Of a stretch of 64,000 bases of DNA, positions 40,560-55,350 are shown piece by piece; position 1 is the stretch's first letter, and each line of letters starts with the position of its first letter. The position numbers were made by a program, and so were the translations under genes. This DNA is from Octopus sinensis (Eukaryota): assembly GCF_006345805.1 (NCBI RefSeq), contig NW_021825821.1:248001-312000 (forward strand), written 5' to 3'. Below the pieces are notes generated by a model that made no database searches, had not been told where the DNA came from, and saw only the letters and a list, made by a program, of their open reading frames with translations.

Positions 40560-41455
40560 GTAAGGTAACAACTTTATTTAGGTAACAACGAATAGTATGT
40601 GGGGTAATAATTAATGAATCGGTAAGGCTTGCTTACCGACTTCTTCCGCGAAACAAAAAGAAAAGAGGGACCCCAACGTCTCAGTATAGAATTACCTTTG
40701 CAGGTAAGTCCCAGTGACTGTTGACCAAAGTTTGTAGTTTTTGATGCCTTTTTCAACGATTTCCCCCACCGTGGGCGTTTTAGCCTCGAGCCATGGGGGA
40801 ATCGGGCATTCCGGGCTTTGGGAGTAGGCGATTTTTAACGCCAGTCTCCGAGTTTTTTCGAACTTCTCGATAATGGAACTCCTCTTTCTAGAGAAGTACC
40901 ATGCCTCTTTTCCAAATATAAGTCCTGGTAAGATCACCGTGTTAAAAACATAAAGGAAAGTATCTGGTTCCAGATTAAACTTTCTTAGGCAAAACAGAGC
41001 GTTTGTTGCTTTCTTTTTCCGAATTTTCGCATATTCAGTGTATTTACCATTTTCTTCAATTTGCAATCCCAGGTATTTTATTGAATGTTGTCGTGGTATG
41101 TTAGTAATCAGGCATGGTGAATTTTTAAGATTTCTACTTTCTGTGATTCTCAACAGGGCAGACTTCTCACGTGCGACAGTCAGCATGTTATTTCTGCACC
41201 AATGTTCGACCTCTTCCATATATGACAGCATTCGTTGTTCAGATAAGGCAGGTTTCGGTGAAACATCGAGGATGACCACATCATCCGCATATATTAGAAT
41301 TTCCGTCCGTACATCATTTGGAGAAGGTAGATTACTCATTACAATGTTGAATAACAGAGGACTGAGTACTGATCCCTGGGGGACACCTCTTTTTAATTTT
41401 AGCTCATCCGAGTCATGGTTCAGTAAGCTAACCACTGATCGTCTGTCGCGGAGGA
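40560..41455 (-). mobile_element. 5'-truncated LINE RT nested in the hAT
   Basis: GVPQGSVLSPLLFN, YADD and KYLG motifs. Confidence 0.85.
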
Positions 41456-42470
41456 AAACGCATTAAATATGATGATCAAAAACGCATTAAATATGATGAT
41501 CACGGGACCCTTACATCATACGTATTGTCCCAGACCGCAAAACCATATATGGAGGTTTTATATGAGGTTTTTAAACATGAATTATTTGTAGATTGCTCAA
41601 CTTATAGCCAGAAACAAAGTATCTCATTGTTCTGGAGAAAAACTAATAAAACCAGGCGCGTTACTAATGGCAAGATTACTGATTGGGAAAGATGTTGAAA
41701 AAGAATTTAAGAATATACCACTTTCAAATGATATCATCTCTATGCTAATTCATGAGATGTCAAAAGATTTGCTAGAACAACTAATTTTTCGTATTCACCA
41801 CAGTCAATTTCCAATATGCATCAAGTTGGATGAATCTACAGATATCAGTTCAATATGCTACTTAGTCGCATTTGTTCGATTTGTTGAAGACGATTCTGTC
41901 GTGGACGAGTTTTTATTTTGTTTGGAAATGACAGGAAGAACACGAGGAAATGATATATTTCATCTCTTTTTGTCTTTCCTTGTTTCCAATAATATTCCCT
42001 GAACTAAAGTTGGGTCGATATGCACTGATGGAGCACCTGTCATGCTCGGACATCGATCTGGTTTTATTGCACTGGTTAAAGATGTCGCACCTCATATTAT
42101 CGCAAACCATTGCGCAATACATAAGTATGCTCTTGCTGTAAAGAAGATGCCTCAAGAATTAAAAATTGTTCTTGATTCGACCGTAAAGTCAGTTAATTTG
42201 ATTTGTGCGAGGGCGACTAATCATAGACTTTTTAAATTATTATGTGAAGAAATGGGAACAGAACATTCAGTACTAATTTTCCACACTAAAGTTCGGTGGT
42301 TGTCAAGATGAAGGGTGCTTAAACGGGTTGCCGAATGAATTGGTGCACTCACTACTTTTTTACAAGAAATAAATAATATAGAACTCGCTAATATGTTCGC
42401 AGATTATGCTTTCAAACAAAAGTTATTCTATCTTGCTGATATATTTGGAATAATAAACGAATTAAATTTA

Positions 42471-43179
42471 CTAGAATTTGGATCGACGTCATCGACGGGT
42501 TCGCTATTGGACAACGAAACACTGCGCATCGGGGTCGCTCTTCGGCTGGGGCTCGATGTCTGCGCCTCTCATCCCTGTCGATGCGGAGGTACGGTGGACG
42601 TGAAAGGCCTTCACCCCCTCTCCTGCCGCCGGAGCGCAGGCCGCTCGCCTCGCCATGGAGCAATCAACGACGTTATCTCAAGAGCTCTCAACGCTGCTGG
42701 CTTCCCCAACGTGCTTGAACCAGACGGATTGGACAGGGGGGACGGCAAACGCCCGGACGGGATGACCACCTTCCCATTCTGAAATGGCAATTGCCTGATC
42801 TGGGACGCCACGTGCGCAGACACGTGGTCCCCATCTGCTCTACTGTCATCTGCTTCTTCTTCCGACTCGGTCGCGGCCGTGGCGGAAGCCCGCAAAGTAG
42901 AAAAGTACAAGAATCTTGCCACTCGGCATTCCTTCATGCCTGTGGCTTTTGAGACATCAGGCGCTTCCGGTCCGCTGACTTCATGCTTCGTAAAAGACCT
43001 CGGTATCCTCATCGCTCGGAAGAAGATGGATGCTCGCGAGTCTTCTTGGTTGAGGCAGAGGATTTCGCTCGCAATCGTGCGCGGGAACGCGCAAGCAATC
43101 CGTTCGGCTGGGTTAATTTAGTTAACTGACAATTGTTTTGCTTCTGTGAAAAAAAAAGTTTAATAAATAAAAAAAAAAA
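42471..43179 (+). mobile_element. 5'-truncated CRE insertion with poly(A) and an 11-bp TSD
   Basis: RLE motifs; AATTAAATTTA at 42460-42470 and 43180-43190 splits the hAT motif NELNL|SIQG. Confidence 0.9.
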
Positions 43180-43307
43180 AATTAAATTTATCCATACAAG
43201 GCAAATCTTTCTTTTTTATCCTGGAAGTAATAATATCTCAAGCATAGAAGCTTTTCAAAAACTATCAAAAGTTGAATTTATGGAGAAAAAAATTAACTAA
43301 AAATGTT

Positions 43308-44533
43308 TTTCTTGTTGAAGAACTTTCTTTTCGTCCCCAGACTGACCTATATTCTCCGTTCCTCCCCGTGTTTCGCTGCCACAGACTCATTATCCAGAAT
43401 CGATAATCTTGTCCACCAATCGCTAACATTCCACCTCAATTTGAGGTTCACTGGTGACGGTTTTACCCGTGCCAGTTTACCAACTCGCTTCGGGGGGATC
43501 GGGATCCGCCCTTGTGCGGACCTGGCCCTACCCTGCTATCTCTCATCCATGTCGGCTTCCAGGAATTCCGTTTGCTCAGTTCTACTTCCCTCTCTCGAAC
43601 TTAATGAGCTCTCGGAATTCTCATCTGCATGCCGTACGTGGTGCTCACTCAACCTTGATTTTCCCACGATCCCTTCAGTTCAAAGGGGCTGGGACGAAAT
43701 TCTCTGCTTGAACACATTACGAAAACTTCGCTCCAAGTCGGACCAACTCCAGCTGGCCACCCTTAACTGCGCCTGTCAGCCGCACACGGGCGACTGGCTC
43801 AAAGCTCTCCCCACTCCTAGTACGGGGTTACTACTGGACGACGAATCCTTGCGGATTGGGATCAGCTTACGATTGGGTTTGGACATCCGCCAGCCCCACC
43901 CTTGCCGGTGCGGGTCCTCAATTTCGTCAAACGGCTTGCACGCCTTGTCGTGTAAGAAGAGTGCCGGGAGAATTCCCCGTCACACTCATCTGAATGACGT
44001 TGTGAGGAGGGCTCTAGAGTCGGCTGGTTTCCCTTCCACCCTAGAGCCAGTCGGCCTTTCCCGGAGCGACGGCAAGCGTCCCGACGGGATGACGACCTTT
44101 CCTTTTAGGGAAGGCAAGTCCCTGGTTTGGGATGCCACGTGTGTCGACTCTTTTTCGGCGACAATGCTTCCCAGGACTGTCGCAAACCCGGGTTCCGCCA
44201 GTGCGCTGGCTGAAGAGACAAAGATGACGAAATACCGGTGTATTTCGGACGCTTTTGAGTTTGCCCCCCTCGCCTTCGAAACCTCTGGAATCGTCGGAAA
44301 GGCTGCGACTCAACTCCTCACCGCCATTGGTAGAAAAATCTCCACAAAAACAAACGACCGGAGGGAGACGAGCTGGCTGTTCCAGCGAATCTCGGTTGCT
44401 GTGCTCCGCGGAAACTGCCACTCAATACGCAGCGCGGCATCGTTGAGCTGACCCTCAGGCCCTCGACAATTCCCTTAGCCACCCAATTGCTTACTTTTTT
44501 CTTTCTAGTTTGATTTTGAAAAAAAAAAAAAAA
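43308..44533 (+). mobile_element. 5'-truncated CRE insertion (thumb + RLE ORF) with poly(A)
   Basis: 382-aa ORF with SLPTRFGGIG, CRCG..HALSC and KRPDG..WDATC; TSD AA(C/A)TAAAAATGTT at 43295-43307 and 46584-46596. Confidence 0.9.
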
Positions 44534-44689
44534 TTCTCTGTGTTGCACATGCGGGGCTATAAACATTATGGCTTTCGTGAAAAGTGCTTATATCTTAATA
44601 ATAAAATGGTATGGTGTGTGTCTGTCTGTCTGTCTGTCTGTCGTTCTGTCTGTCTGTCTGTGTGTGCACACCAACTTCAAATTGGCAAT

Positions 44690-45210
44690 ACGATGTCCTC
44701 GACTTACATGATGAGGTCCTTAAAACTTTCCCTCCAAAAAAAAATTAAAAAAAATTTTCTGCATTTTGGTTAAAATGAACAACTACGATGTCCTCGACTT
44801 ACATGATGAGGTCCTTAAAACCTTCCCTCCAAAAAAAAATTAAAAAAAAATTTTCTGCATTTTGGTTAAAATGAACAACTACGATGTCCTCGACTTACAT
44901 GATGAGGTCCTTAAAACCTTCCCCCCAAAAAAAATTAAAAAAAATTTTCTGCATTTTGGTTAAAATGAACAACTACGATGTCCTCGACTTACATGATGAG
45001 GTCCTTAAAACTTTCCCTCCAAAAAAAAATTAAAAAAAATTTTCTGCATTTTGGTTAAAATGAATAACTACGATGTCCTCGACTTACATGATGAGGTCCT
45101 TAAAACCTTCCCCCTAAAAAAAAATTAAAAAAAAATTTTCTGCATTTTGGTTAAAATGAACAACGCGAATGTCCTCGACATTCATGATGAGGTCCATAAA
45201 AACCTTCCAG
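44690..45210 (+). repeat. 94-96 bp tandem repeat, about 5.5 copies, inside the Helitron
   Basis: Units start at 44690, 44785, 44881, 44975 and 45070, plus a diverged partial copy near 45165. Confidence 0.95.
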
Positions 45211-45656: not shown

Positions 45657-46975
45657 CTTTGATAGTTGAAACCACATTAGCACAATCATTAACACAATTT
45701 ACCACCAATTGACAGCGCAATCTGAAGAATTTGCGTAAAAATATTCACTATTTAGTTAAGTTTTTCGTAAAGATAGAATTTATTTTCGGTATGTCTCTTT
45801 TCCTAAACTTTTTTATTATTCAAAAATAATTTTTTCAATAGATAACCGAAGGAGAGAAGACGACCTTAAGAAAATAAGTTTTTCGTAAAGATAGAATTTA
45901 TTTTCTGTATGCCTCTTTTTTCCTAATATTTTTTATTATTCAAAAATAATTTTTTAAATAGATAACCGAAGGAAGAAAAACGAAGCTAAAGAAAAAACGG
46001 GCACCTTAAGGTAATTAATTAAATCTTTTTTGTGTGTCGCTTTTTTGGCTGCTGCTACTCTGCCTGCCCCATTTCCGCCAGTGGTTTTATTACGAAATCT
46101 TGCGCCACCTAAATTATGCAACGGAACGAGGTTAGTTATCAAAAATTTAATGGCTAACGTAATAGAGGCGACGATATTAACAGGTAAGTATAGAGGTGAG
46201 GATGTTTATATTCCACGAATTCCGATAATTTCTGATGAATTACCATTTAGATTTAAAAGGCTGCAATTTCCTTTGAGGATGAGTTTTGCAATGACAATAA
46301 ACAAGGCCCAGTGACAGTCATTAAAGGTAGTTGGGTTATTTTTAGAGAATGAGTGCTTTTCACATGGACAGCTGTATGTGGGATGCTCGAGGGTAGGCAG
46401 AAGAGAAAATTTATTCAGATATGCCAAGGAAGGACGGACGACAAATATCAACAGGCGATAGAATAGGGTTACATTAAACCAGGTAGTTTTATACATCTAC
46501 ATAAACTTATAGTTGTTTGATGAAACAGGCCCTCCGCAGGAGCTAGGTCGCGGTGAGCGAAGCGAGCTGCCGAGCTAGTAAATAAATAAAAATGTTATTT
46601 CCATGTTTCCGATGTTGGAGGAATTAATTGGAAATAATAAACCTGAAAAATGATTTATTTTACAAATCGACGAACACATAAAAAAAAATTTGCAAATTAA
46701 ATTCGGAGAATATTTTAATAGCGATCAGATTGTTCCCGATTGGATTTTAGAACCATTTTTGTGTAAGATTGATGTGGCTCAGGAACTTCCTTTTCTACAA
46801 GAATTAATCGATTTAAGAAGCTCTGCGACTGCAAGGGTTACTTTTACAATTTTTATGATTATTCCGATACTTTTCAATTCTTGCACACTTTTGGAATTTT
46901 GGAGTAAAATGATTCCAAAGTATTCGTTACTGACTATGGCTAGTATGCAATATTTAATTCCTTATCAAACAACAT

Positions 46976-48402
46976 TGTAATTTTTTAGCACGCGGTTGCG
47001 CACGTTGGTTTCTATTAGTGTGTTGCGTTGGCCACCAGAATCACCTAATCTAAGGATTTCCTTCAGATGTATGCATATGTCTGTTGTAACGGAGTCGGTT
47101 CTACTCCCCTTTCCGAACATAACGGCGACGACTCAGACTTGTGCACATTCCCTGTTGGATCTTCAATGGAAAGGGTTTTCTGGAGACAATGATCTTCTTA
47201 ATTACACGCGTGTGTTGCGTTGGCCACCAGAATCACCTAATCTAAGGATTTCCTTCAGATGTATGCATATGTCTGTTGTAACGGAGTCGTTCTACTCCCC
47301 TTTCCGAACATAACGGCGACGACTCAGGCTTGTGCACATTCCCTGTTGGATCTTCAATGGAAAGGGTTTTCTGGAGACAATGATCTTCTTAATTACACGC
47401 GTGTGTTGCGTTGGCCACCAGAATCACCTAATCTAAGGATTTCCTTCAGATGTATGCATTGTCTGTTGTAACGGAGTCGGTTCTACCCCCTTTCCGAACA
47501 TAACGGCGACGACTCAGACTTGTGCACATTCCCTGTTGGATCTTCAATGGAAAGGTTTTCTGGAGACAATGATCTTCTTAATTACACGCGTGTGTTGCGT
47601 TGGCCACCAAATCACCTAATCTAAGGATTTCCTTCAGATGTATGCATATGTCTGTTGTAACGGAGTCGGTTCTACTCCCCTTTCCGAACATAACGGCGAC
47701 GACTCAGACTTGTGCACATTCCCTGTGGATCTTCAATGGAAAGGTTTTCTGGAGACAATGATCTTCTTAATTACACGCGTGTGTTGCGTTGGCCACCAGA
47801 ATCACCTAATCTAAGATTTCCTTCAGATGTATGCATATGTCTGTTGTAACGGAGTCGGTTCTACTCCCCTTTCCGAACATAACGGCGACGACTCAGACTT
47901 GTGCACATTCCCTGTTGGATCTTCAATGGAAAGGGTTTTCTGGAGACAATGATCTTCTTAATTACACGCGTGTGTGTGCGTTGGCCACCAGAATCACCTA
48001 ATCTAAGGATTTCCTTCAGATGTATGCATATGTCTGTTGTAACGGAGTCGGTTCTACTCCCCTTCCGAACATAACGGCGACGACTCAGACTTGTGCACAT
48101 TCCCTGTTGGATCTTCAATGGAAAGGTTTTCTGGAGACAATGATCTTCTTAATTACACGCGTGTGTTGCGTTGGCCACCAGAATCACCTAATCTAAGGAT
48201 TTCCTTCAGATGTATGCATATGTCTGTTGTAACGGAGTCGGTTCTACTCCCCTTTCCGAACATAACGGCGACGACTCAGGCTTGTGCACATTCCCTGTTG
48301 GATCTTCAATGGAAAGGGTTTTCTGGAGACAATGATCTTCTTAATTAGTTCGGATACTTGTTCTCTCATTTTCATATTGTAACTTTTTTTGGACAAAAAA
48401 AA
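46976..48402 (+). mobile_element. Retroposed insertion (poly(A) + 9-bp TSD) built from a spliced 192-nt concatemer
   Basis: TSD AAACAACAT at 46967-46975 and 48403-48411 splits hAT PYQTT|YLCE; A-run from 48395. Confidence 0.8.
47019..48347 (+). repeat. Seven head-to-tail copies of a 192-bp unit
   Basis: The GTGTG unit start recurs at 47018, 47210, 47401, 47590, 47779, 47970 and 48161; differences are mostly 1-bp indels. Confidence 0.97.
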
Positions 48403-48697
48403 AAACAACATACTTATGCGAAACTGCGATGTCTTGTTTATCATTTATTAAAAATAAATCTCGTAATCGATTGAAAGTTGGAGATGATATGCGAATCGCT
48501 CTTAGCAACATGGATCCGAATATAGAAAAATTGTTGCAGAAAAGCAACAACAAATATCTCACTAGAATTAAAACTTTACACTTTTTAGGCATAAAATATT
48601 TTATTGATTTTATTTAGTTAGAAAATAATTTATATTTTATTTTATAATTAAATCATTTATCTCAAAAAAAGATATATAAAAATTTAAAAATCGATAG

Positions 48698-50524: not shown

Positions 50525-51609
50525 TTAGAAAGGATATTCCTTCATGTGGACGTAACTAAAGAACTAACAGATTCTCAATTACTTCTCCAGTCGAACGGCA
50601 CGGTAGTCCTGTCCCAGTTCATTCAACCTCGCAATGTCCTCCGCGGACAACTCAAAATCAAAAATCTAAAAAAACACAAAAATCTCCCACATCCAAATTG
50701 CTCTGAATGTGAGCCGGATTCAAACTCTTAGGAATGACAGCACATCCTCTGTCGATGTGGAATCGAAGGAGCACTTGGACGGCCGACTTGTCGTATTTGG
50801 CAGCAATTTCCCTGACTGTTTCATTTTCCACAAACAGAACATCCTTGGTGGTGTCAGCCCTGAAATGAGGACAAATGTCACCATGGACGGTCGGGGGAGC
50901 CCAGAGGACTGTAGGCAGTGGTAATGATGTTATTGGCCTTGCCAAAGTCAATCCAATCTCGATTATCCAAAAAAGGGTGAGCCTCGAATTGGTTGACTTC
51001 CGGCTGGATGTTAGAACTGGACAGAATTCGCTCGAGTTGAGTGGGGTTAAAGTTGGACACGCCGATATTCTTGGCAAGTCCTGCTCTCTTGGTGGCCTCC
51101 ATTCCTTTCCACGTGCTCTCGATGTCTCCGGGTCCCTCAATTGTCCGCCCGTCCTTATCCTTGGGGAATAAATCGTCCCCGGCCTAAATGGAGCAATGTG
51201 ACAACCTTGAAGCTCATTGGCCAATGGACCAAGTACAGATCGACGTAATCCAGTCCCAGGTTGTTGAGAGACAAATGCAGGTTCATCATCACGTCATGTT
51301 CCTGGTGATATGTCGACCACAGCTAAGCATGGGGATAACGCTCAACCTTCGTGGTCACAAAAATGTCTTCCCGTCTGATAGTTCCGTCCGCTATTTTTTC
51401 GCGGATTGCCTTCCCGACTTGAGTTTCGTTTTCGTAGACAAAGGCAGTGTCGATGTGGCGGTATCCGCAGGAAATGGCCTGCCTCACCGAGTTGTACGCC
51501 TCATCCCCTGTGGCCTACAACTCGGTTACTAATTCACAGGCACCTTCCAGGTTCCTAGACCAACCACTGGAAATGCAGTCCCATCAGTAAAATAAAGACA
51601 CGAGTTCAT
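50525..51609 (-). CDS. Aldo-keto reductase family 1 (aldose reductase-like), 6 micro-introns
   Basis: [59 protein letters not shown] and YPF*. Confidence 0.93.
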
Positions 51610-51671
51610 CAAAATTTTTTAATATATTTAAATTACTTTAATTTTTTTAATAGACAGTTTTATTTATTTAA

Positions 51672-53879: not shown

Positions 53880-55350
53880 CACTTTCTGACTGGAAGACAC
53901 CTGGGGTCGATAAGGTAATTTCTTTATAAAAAATTGCAAACCAATCCATGATTGCATGTGTCGAGCAATCGAACAGTTTACACTTGACTCTGGCTCGATT
54001 CCAGAGTGGTTATGTACTGGGGTCATTTATTTAATCCCTAAAGTAGATAACCCTTCCGCTCTGACAGATTATCGTCCGATAACCTGTATGCCCAACCTGT
54101 ACAAGTTGATGACTAAGGTGGTGGCTACTGAGATCAGAAATTTCGTGGAGGTGAATGGGATTCTATCCGAGAACCAGTTAGGTACTCGGCAGGATTGCCA
54201 GGGAGCTAAGGAGCAGGCACTGATCAACAAATGCCTCGCGAGAGCCCACGGAAACTCACTAGTGTCGATGAGGGTGGATGTGAATAAGTCATATGACTCG
54301 GTTGATCATGTCTACCACGTTGAGTGTCTGCGAAGGCTTTAGTTGCCTATGTGGTTTATCAAGTTTGTTGCAACTGTGATGGACAGGTGGAACGTGCATC
54401 TACACTACAACAAATGCGATATAGGCGAGGTTAAGCTAGAGAGGGGCATATTACAGGGCGACAGCATGTCTCCGCTGCTGTTTGTCCTCTGCCTAGAACC
54501 GCTGAGTAGAGTCCTCACTGCCCAATTCGAACAAATGTCGATCGAACATGAAGGAGGGTGTTTTAGCACCAACCATCTCATGTTCATAGACGACATTAAA
54601 CTGTTCGCTCGGTCTTCAGAGATCCTCCACTCGATGGGCAAAGTCTTGGAAGGTTTCATGAAGGCCGTGGGTCTGGAGCTCAACTACAAAAAGTCGGCGA
54701 CTAACACCCCGGTGTGCGGTGACCTAGTCAAAGTCTTGGAGGAGCACCAAGGGTATAAGTATCTTGGTGTGGTTGAGAGCCCAGCCTCATTAATCACACC
54801 CGAAACGAAAAAGTGTGTAGTGGAGGGTGTGCGTAGTAAGGCGGCAATGTTATGTAAGACTTGGCTCAATGCACGGAACTTATTTCATGCCTTGAACGAG
54901 TACGCCATCTCATTGCTAAACTATTACGTTGGCCTGATCGAATTCGAGCCGAGTGAGTACGATGAAATGGACCTTATTGTCCTAAGAGTAGTCCGAGAGA
55001 ATCACGTCCACGTGTTGGCAAGCAATAAGGAGAGATTATACTTGTCTCGCGGGCAGCTAGGACCACAAGCGGTACTTAAGACAGTTGGGTGTAAATAAAT
55101 CTCTACAGGCTTATATACAGTCAACTGTTCTTAAGAGGACTCTGAAGAGTATCTCGCTTGATGCTTGCCGATCCAGCCCTTTCTTGACGTTTAGTCAGCG
55201 AGAGGCGCTGGACTGCACCTTCTCGAAAGTCTACAGTGCCAGAGAAGAGGAGGAAGAAGGGGAGGAGGTGCGTAGAGTGCCACCATCTGCTCACTTCGAA
55301 GGCTCTGGACTTAGTTAGAAAAATTACTTAGCTAATTAGTTTCTTTTTTA
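53880..55350 (+). mobile_element. R4-like RT fragment with an internal deletion
   Basis: DYRPITCMP, GAKEQ, GILQGDSMSP, FIDD and AYIQSTVLKRTL motifs. Confidence 0.88.

Follow-up and report, generated by a model that had tools for sequence, protein, structure and literature searches.

The array at 46976-48402 of the window (the whole stretch of DNA that was analysed, 64,000 nucleotides) is best read as one copy of a young, low-copy, non-autonomous retroposon that begins with a splice acceptor and ends with a splice donor. Spliceosomal head-to-tail joining of its units is supported, as is LINE-type insertion of a linear, polyadenylated plus-strand RNA. The host of the element is likely a dicyemid that was sequenced together with the octopus.

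Structure of the array

The following features were located in the window.

46580-46975, + strand: hAT transposon fragment, left flank; runs on into the right flank in empty paralogous copies
46967-46975, + strand: target-site duplication, left copy (8-9 bp)
46976-46988, + strand: leader (13 nt) ending in T6-AG, an unused splice acceptor
46989-46994, + strand: micro-exon CACGCG, 6 nt, the opening bases of every unit
46995-47018, + strand: 24-nt GT-AG intron, kept in unit 1; size normal for host introns
47019-47204, + strand: unit 1 exon, 186 nt
47035-47183, + strand: predicted unbranched rod hairpin inside the unit 1 exon (folding against shuffles)
47205-48347, + strand: units 2-7, intron-less, 189-192 nt each, joined TTAATTA/CACGCG
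48348-48394, + strand: unused splice donor GT and U-rich tail (47 nt)
48395-48402, + strand: A-run, read as a poly(A) remnant, merging into the duplication
48403-48411, + strand: target-site duplication, right copy
48412-48570, + strand: hAT dimerisation-domain fragment, right flank

The leader, micro-exon, 24-nt segment, 186-nt exon, six further units, donor GT and A-run all lie where the sequence-only reading had placed them. The leader reads TGTAATTTTTTAG, and units 2-7 start at 47205, 47396, 47585, 47774, 47965 and 48156. The repeat length of 192 nt given in that reading applies to unit 7 alone; units 2-6 measure 189-191 nt as a result of scattered one-base indels, which are likely long-read noise. 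The tail was also said to resemble the 5′ acceptor region, which is so in the window copy only, the tails at other loci being different. The head-to-tail junction is free of microhomology, and GT/AG at both junction types would be expected by chance with a probability of ∼2e-5 (local base composition).

AAACAACAT is present twice, at 46967-46975 and 48403-48411. The flanks were assigned to hAT by tblastn of a PF05699-positive neighbour (E 8e-7), and nine hAT paralogues were examined: four read AACAACAT once across the insertion site, three have one base different at the empty site and two are truncated. Because these copies cross the site with the duplicated bases once, the proposed duplication was retained and its size corrected from 9 bp to 8-9 bp.

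A perfect 10-nt palindrome, ACACGCGTGT, lies at 47204-47213. It requires that both the head-to-tail and the intron junction have been made, and it could allow RNA-RNA pairing.

Copies in the assembly

A search of the assembly DNA with the exon yielded 57 matches; these fall at 22 loci, which lie without exception on small contigs. A six-frame peptide search returned the same 22 loci only; further multimers exist, as had been anticipated. Two locus pairs have common flanks, giving 20 insertions. Seven of the insertions consist of one whole monomer (leader-AG, 6 nt, 24-nt intron, 186 nt, donor-tail). A single donor-tail, always last, is present at each locus (22/22), and an A-run of at least eight at 15/22; roughly half of the loci are flanked by 8-11-bp duplications, and several are 5′-truncated. 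LINE-type insertion is supported by these A-runs, duplications, truncations and terminal donor-tails. Together with the exact donor/acceptor junctions, the A-runs and duplications uphold the earlier view of a spliceosome-joined small RNA element mobilised in LINE fashion. An AG directly precedes the first unit at 10/22 loci and all 10 such units keep the intron, while no spliced monomer was found among the 22 loci. No complete 5′ end lies more than ∼20 nt ahead of the acceptor. The first 20 nt of the tail has 20 exact matches in the assembly, all at element ends and none followed by a leader.

After one spurious match outside the element had been dropped, 39 internal junctions were counted. 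Exactly TTAATTA/CACGCG is read at 36 of them, and the other three carry one- or two-base deletions; 21 enter spliced units and 18 enter intron-keeping units. Two subfamilies can be distinguished, A14 (monomers and the first unit in the window) and T14 (arrays), and T14 is carried by 18/18 internal intron-keeping units of the assembly. Contig C9338 holds ten 216-nt units. Contig C5291 holds 13 units. The acceptor has become AC in two of them, and neither is spliced; of the remaining 11, 10 are spliced. This pattern is what unit-by-unit splicing of a linear chain would produce. C9231 and C10248 have a common 60-nt 5′ extension that occurs nowhere else, with five and two units, respectively. In the window and in C9231, one intron-keeping unit is followed by a run of spliced units.

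The arrays are mosaics of alleles that occur also at other loci. Variants private to an array recur within it (T151C in 4/13 units, T160C+C173G in 4/5, A149G in 2/7), and window unit 2 is unlike units 3-6 at position 149. Identical units are neighbours in 12 pairs versus 7.8 expected in random order (p 0.03, post hoc labels); the arrays are noisy, and part of the variants may be polishing errors. Past their first 26 nt the tails are strongly diverged, though the units are ∼99% identical.

A 52-nt mini-unit with both ends and the intron, and without the rod hairpin, occurs at loci L009, L012, L021 and L068 (C9497, C7756, C9311 and C8594). Its breaks show microhomology, and it suggests that reverse transcriptase jumped at the rod.

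Host of the element

All 22 loci lie on small contigs of a second animal inside the octopus-labelled assembly (window contig C2292; C8901 and C8852 alike). The ornithine decarboxylase (ODC) of C8901 is named as an octopus protein and its next relatives are only ∼45-50% identical; a second ODC, on a chromosome-sized contig, has exons kilobases apart and is 41-46% identical to it. The C8901 ODC introns measure 26, 25 and 25 nt and are left out of RNA contigs. The aldo-keto reductase at 50580-51613 of the window (− strand) has at least five GT-AG micro-introns of ∼22-29 nt. With host introns of 22-29 nt, the 24-nt segment of the element is an intron of ordinary size.

The host is an animal, since innexins are found on the same element-bearing small contigs. 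Near-intronless innexin genes number in the dozens on the parasite contigs; the chromosome-sized contigs have far fewer. Dicyemids inhabit cephalopod kidneys. According to PMC13644364, the only animals reported to have introns so short are myxobolids and dicyemids, and a median intron of 27 bp is given for Dicyema (PMC6543705). From the 22-29-nt introns, the host is likely a co-sequenced dicyemid; an innexin from an element-bearing contig gave no match to a named dicyemid (best 30-35%). Dicyema japonicum is described in PMC6736024 as repeat-rich, with LINE ORF2 copies. The assembly probably does not cover the parasite genome completely. The element-bearing contigs and their host genes would belong to the parasite, not to the octopus whose name they bear.

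The junction in RNA and short-read DNA

Seven runs from three studies contain the element, and four of them (X1, X3, X4 and X5) were compared with the C8901 monomer and its ODC neighbour. None of the seven is catalogued as RNA. The comparison showed X1 and X3 to be RNA of the element's host, the ODC introns being removed, and X4 to be DNA; in X5 no intron was spanned. In X1, a 222-nt contig (192 plus a 30-base overlap) closes on itself through a fully spliced junction at a depth of 15, against 16.5 for ODC. In X3, a 246-nt contig (216 plus 30) has a depth of 23 against 48 for ODC, and its junction is followed by the A14 intron. RNA from two studies thus carries the head-to-tail junction. As contigs, both are unable to separate a circle from a linear chain; contigs also drop short tips, and the absent leader and tail coverage may be tip clipping. 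A14 after the junction in X3, versus T14 in all internal intron-keeping units, points to joining at the RNA level; this argument is weakened by 8/1324 ODC bases that differ between X3/X4 and the assembly, as these isolates may hold extra arrays.

In the X4 DNA the spliced junction has a depth of 349 versus 47.5 for a single-copy gene. The possibility, raised in the sequence-only reading, that the array is a long-read artefact is thereby refuted for the junction itself, which is what this check covers, rather than the number of units at the window locus. The unit stands at roughly 35-79x single-copy depth, which fits the assembled count (depths rough), and the depth just upstream of the unit corresponds to roughly 8-13 leader copies, about the assembled number. 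Among the joints listed for X4, none connects tail to leader. Between isolates, 2/394 bases of the element differ versus 34/1430 in the ODC coding sequence (p 0.014), a hint of constraint or of recent spread.

An X3 RNA contig connects unit position 1 with the flank of a site at C12762 (L098:1530) that is empty in the assembly. Trans-splicing to a host RNA was considered and rejected because the flank has no GT there; the joint is likely a polymorphic insertion.

Proposed mechanism and alternatives

The mechanism that we favour, and to which we assign an even chance, is a back-splicing cassette whose RNA is also trans-spliced into linear poly(A) chains, retroposed and locally expanded. Pol II transcription would start just upstream of the acceptor. 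The host spliceosome would join donor to acceptor within one RNA, with predicted 216- and 192-nt circles as products, and trans-splicing between RNAs would give linear chains with one leader and one poly(A) tail, the presumed source of new chains. The 24-nt intron would be removed only once a unit has an upstream junction. Linear chains would then be inserted by a LINE through target-primed reverse transcription; neither a partner LINE nor a promoter was identified for the element. Inserted arrays would be re-transcribed and cis-spliced unit by unit, and units could be gained locally by unequal exchange. Related behaviour has precedents: engineered circRNA cassettes yield trans-spliced linear concatemers and ladders of circular concatemers in the experiments described in PMC13622603, and trans-splicing prior to LINE-1 insertion has been proposed (bioRxiv 10.1101/2025.02.02.635956). 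Linear templates are indicated because all loci end in the donor-tail, which a circle lacks. The chain mechanism also accounts for the exact junctions, the A-runs and duplications, the intron kept in every unit behind an AG leader, the lack of a spliced monomer, the unspliced broken-acceptor units of C5291, the mosaic arrays, the common extension of C9231 and C10248 before different unit numbers, and the X1 and X3 contigs that close on the junction, with A14 in X3. Against it, chains of 7-13 units made by trans-splicing alone need many intermolecular events, the clustered identical units and repeated private variants require local copying, which rolling on a circle supplies as easily as DNA exchange, and the RNA is seen as contigs, not as raw reads or a full-length transcript.

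Rolling enters the main rival scheme, which we regard as possible but less likely, in which the LINE reverse transcriptase primes on the poly(A) of a linear copy, switches to a back-spliced circle via the shared exon, rolls several times and jumps back to a linear copy. It amounts to the original proposal extended by at least two switches. The single intron-keeping unit before a spliced run in the window and C9231, the clustering of identical units, the recurrence of private variants and the closed RNA contigs would all follow, and the mini-unit that lacks the rod at four loci suggests that the enzyme jumps there. Runs of identical spliced units are explained as well as by the chain mechanism, but many switches are needed: about five for C5291 and several for C9338. 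The difference of window unit 2 from units 3-6 at position 149 also speaks against this scheme, the circles are predicted only, and no tail-less insertion occurs among the 22 loci. A related proposal, held with similarly limited confidence, is that of a selfish cassette kept by selection, in which a rod circle closed by the spliceosome would be the template for rolling by the LINE reverse transcriptase and circles or chains would encode an endless 64- or 72-residue repeat. Plain rolling-circle reverse transcription of a single circle, the original proposal, accounts for tandem exact head-to-tail junctions and closed RNA contigs and is nevertheless to be abandoned as highly improbable: the unspliced donor-tail that ends every locus is absent from any circle, an acceptor AG stands at 10 starts, with the window copy among those that keep a leader, and units of 216 and 192 nt, as well as different SNP alleles, occur together within one insertion. 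Published circRNA-derived pseudogenes, moreover, mostly lack A-tails in the account of PMC4897178.

One leader, one tail and mixed intron states would need no unusual chemistry if an unseen template existed, either a tandem of complete monomers that arose by template jumping or by duplication of DNA, or else a DNA minicircle, and the tail-leader spacer were removed by cis-splicing. Thousands of circular DNAs are described for dicyemids in PMC6543705, an A-run precedes three leaders, and the probable incompleteness of the parasite assembly leaves room for such a template. We nevertheless consider it rather unlikely, as the 20 exact donor-tail matches are all terminal with none followed by a leader, no tail-to-leader joint is among those listed in X4, leader copies are about as many as assembled, and allele mosaics are not expected from one template. 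The alternative offered in the sequence-only reading, a partly spliced transcript of an intron-containing array, would likewise account for the mixed arrays, but the assembly contains no array whose units are separated by a spacer intron. Very unlikely, in our judgement, is a viroid-like replicon whose circle is copied from RNA to RNA and whose genomic copies are fossils of intermediates. The rod-like predicted fold, unit lengths that are multiples of three with one stop-free frame, and the lower divergence from isolate to isolate than in ODC are in its favour; it is opposed by circular folds of ordinary stability, the lack of an Rfam match, an open frame that also arises in shuffles, insertions of one polarity only with intron flanks, splice sites that could not be regenerated from a circle, and an RNA depth only about that of ODC mRNA (library type not recorded). 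Least credible of all is that the array is a minisatellite formed purely at the DNA level, or an assembly artefact, and that its GT/AG ends arose by chance. The many one-base indels of the arrays would suit this reading; for the junctions it is refuted by the low chance expectation, the lack of microhomology, the 20 independent insertions and the fact that short-read DNA and the RNA from two studies contain the junction.

Comparison with known elements

SINEs and processed pseudogenes are short and poly(A)-ended, have 8-11-bp duplications, show 5′ truncation and stem from several source copies. The element resembles them in size, poly(A) end, duplications, 5′ truncation and number of source copies, and its insertion is of the LINE type. 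It differs from SINEs in that neither the tRNA scan nor Rfam detected a tRNA-like or other Pol III head (tRNA, 7SL or 5S with A and B boxes), its RNA is spliced and its tail is common to no other repeat of the assembly, so that no tail shared with a partner LINE was found.

Animal non-LTR retrozymes, according to the account in PMC7229834, have 150-450-bp units in dimers to long multimers with <50% GC. The element shares with them such short tandem units of low GC, the target-site duplications and the non-autonomous state. Its RNA may be circular, as that of retrozymes is or may be, but its closed 192- and 216-nt contigs prove neither circles nor their levels. It differs in having no type I hammerhead in its units, whose ends are spliceosomal sites, in having a true monomer with leader and tail, and in the donor-tail, mostly followed by an A-run, that closes each insertion. 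Circle templates, proposed for retrozymes in the same account, are not required here. By analogy, the element would correspond to a retrozyme in which the spliceosome does the work of the hammerhead and which needs no ribozyme.

A back-splice-type junction in genomic copies, non-colinear here and exact in 36/39 cases, is shared with the circRNA-derived pseudogenes treated in PMC4897178. Those consist of exons from a host gene, mostly with no A-tail; the element, in contrast, has no parent gene that could be found, the cassette itself is mobile, and its copies form multimers with a tail. A pseudogene of that kind would have nothing from outside the circle and few terminal adenosines, whereas the element ends in a donor-tail at 22/22 loci and has an A-run of at least eight at 15/22. 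The engineered back-splicing minigenes, as constructed in PMC13622603, likewise have the acceptor first and the donor last, and circles are among their products. The element is natural and mobile, its predicted pairing lies inside the exon and not in flanking repeats, its flanks are only ∼15 and 30-60 nt long, and its host has micro-introns. Zeta viruses, in the features summarised in bioRxiv 10.64898/2026.09.16.752053, have in common with it a length that is a multiple of three, a stop-free circular frame and a rod-like fold. They differ from it in that only one strand of the element is open (1/6 frames), that it has no ribozyme, is <324 nt long and exists as DNA at 22 loci; in the sequencing runs it was met in unstranded contigs only.

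No description of such an element was found in the main texts of the open-access literature searched, and within these texts a non-autonomous LINE-mobilised retroposon of this architecture appears undescribed. Its layout would be that of an engineered circRNA minigene, here in a natural and mobile form, and its genomic copies record head-to-tail splicing products as monomer, dimer and 13-mer with the intron kept or lost. Two questions become testable with it: whether tandem retroelements are reverse-transcribed from circRNAs, which is only proposed for animal retrozymes, and whether the tandem back-splice junctions of genomes can instead stem from linear RNA joined by trans-splicing. A spliceosome adapted to introns of 22-29 nt would be able to join ends that lie 190-216 nt from each other or belong to separate molecules.

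Predicted fold and coding capacity

The exon is predicted to fold into a rod with 53 bp in its longest unbranched stem, versus 21 ± 10 in shuffles (7/500), and an MFE z of −2.0. Such a rod would bring donor and acceptor close. Circular folds have no extra stability relative to shuffles (z −1.0 and −1.3), and the whole-monomer fold has z −0.8. Selection on the rod pairs was not detected, 4/17 variants breaking a pair versus 5.6 expected (p 0.21). Pairing of the 24-nt intron with the region of its own acceptor is also predicted and may be the cause of intron retention.

Both 192 and 216 nt are multiples of three, and one of the six frames is stop-free, its sole stop being formed by the unspliced donor. 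An open plus frame also occurs in 10% of shuffles, and one copy of the element has a stop. The open-frame peptide has no Pfam family, its best ESM Atlas score of 0.81 is at chance level, and no diverged relative was found in its own genome; a protein role of the frame is not supported.

The judgement that there is no obvious ribozyme was borne out by Rfam, with no match at E up to 10 over 46900-48500, and by the absence of the hammerhead core CTGANGA within the element on both strands. A tRNA scan of the element found no tRNA; an 11-mer noted by eye is B-box-like, with one mismatch. A 28-nt pattern of the element had no match in metagenome or viral contigs. Unspliced parent loci had been expected, and intron-keeping monomers do exist; no parent host gene was found, as DNA and six-frame searches gave only the 22 element loci (the parasite assembly may be incomplete). 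The idea of a spliced-leader RNA was rejected, the donor-tail being found only on the element and the ODC RNA contigs having no added leader.

Surroundings of the insertions

At L031 (C12598), the 10 bp of the target duplication also occur, without a mismatch, in the element's own exon near its 3′ end. Copies at L062, L066 and L068 lie within ∼1 kb of housekeeping genes, namely those for ornithine decarboxylase, uridine kinase and tRNA synthetase, and on the same strand as the gene. The window itself is dense in mobile-element debris (40692-41462, 42440-44451, 46015-46400, 53914-55098 and 44689-45208), namely two RT fragments, CRE-like non-LTR pieces, a Pif1 (Helitron-like) fragment, hAT pieces and a 95-bp tandem repeat.
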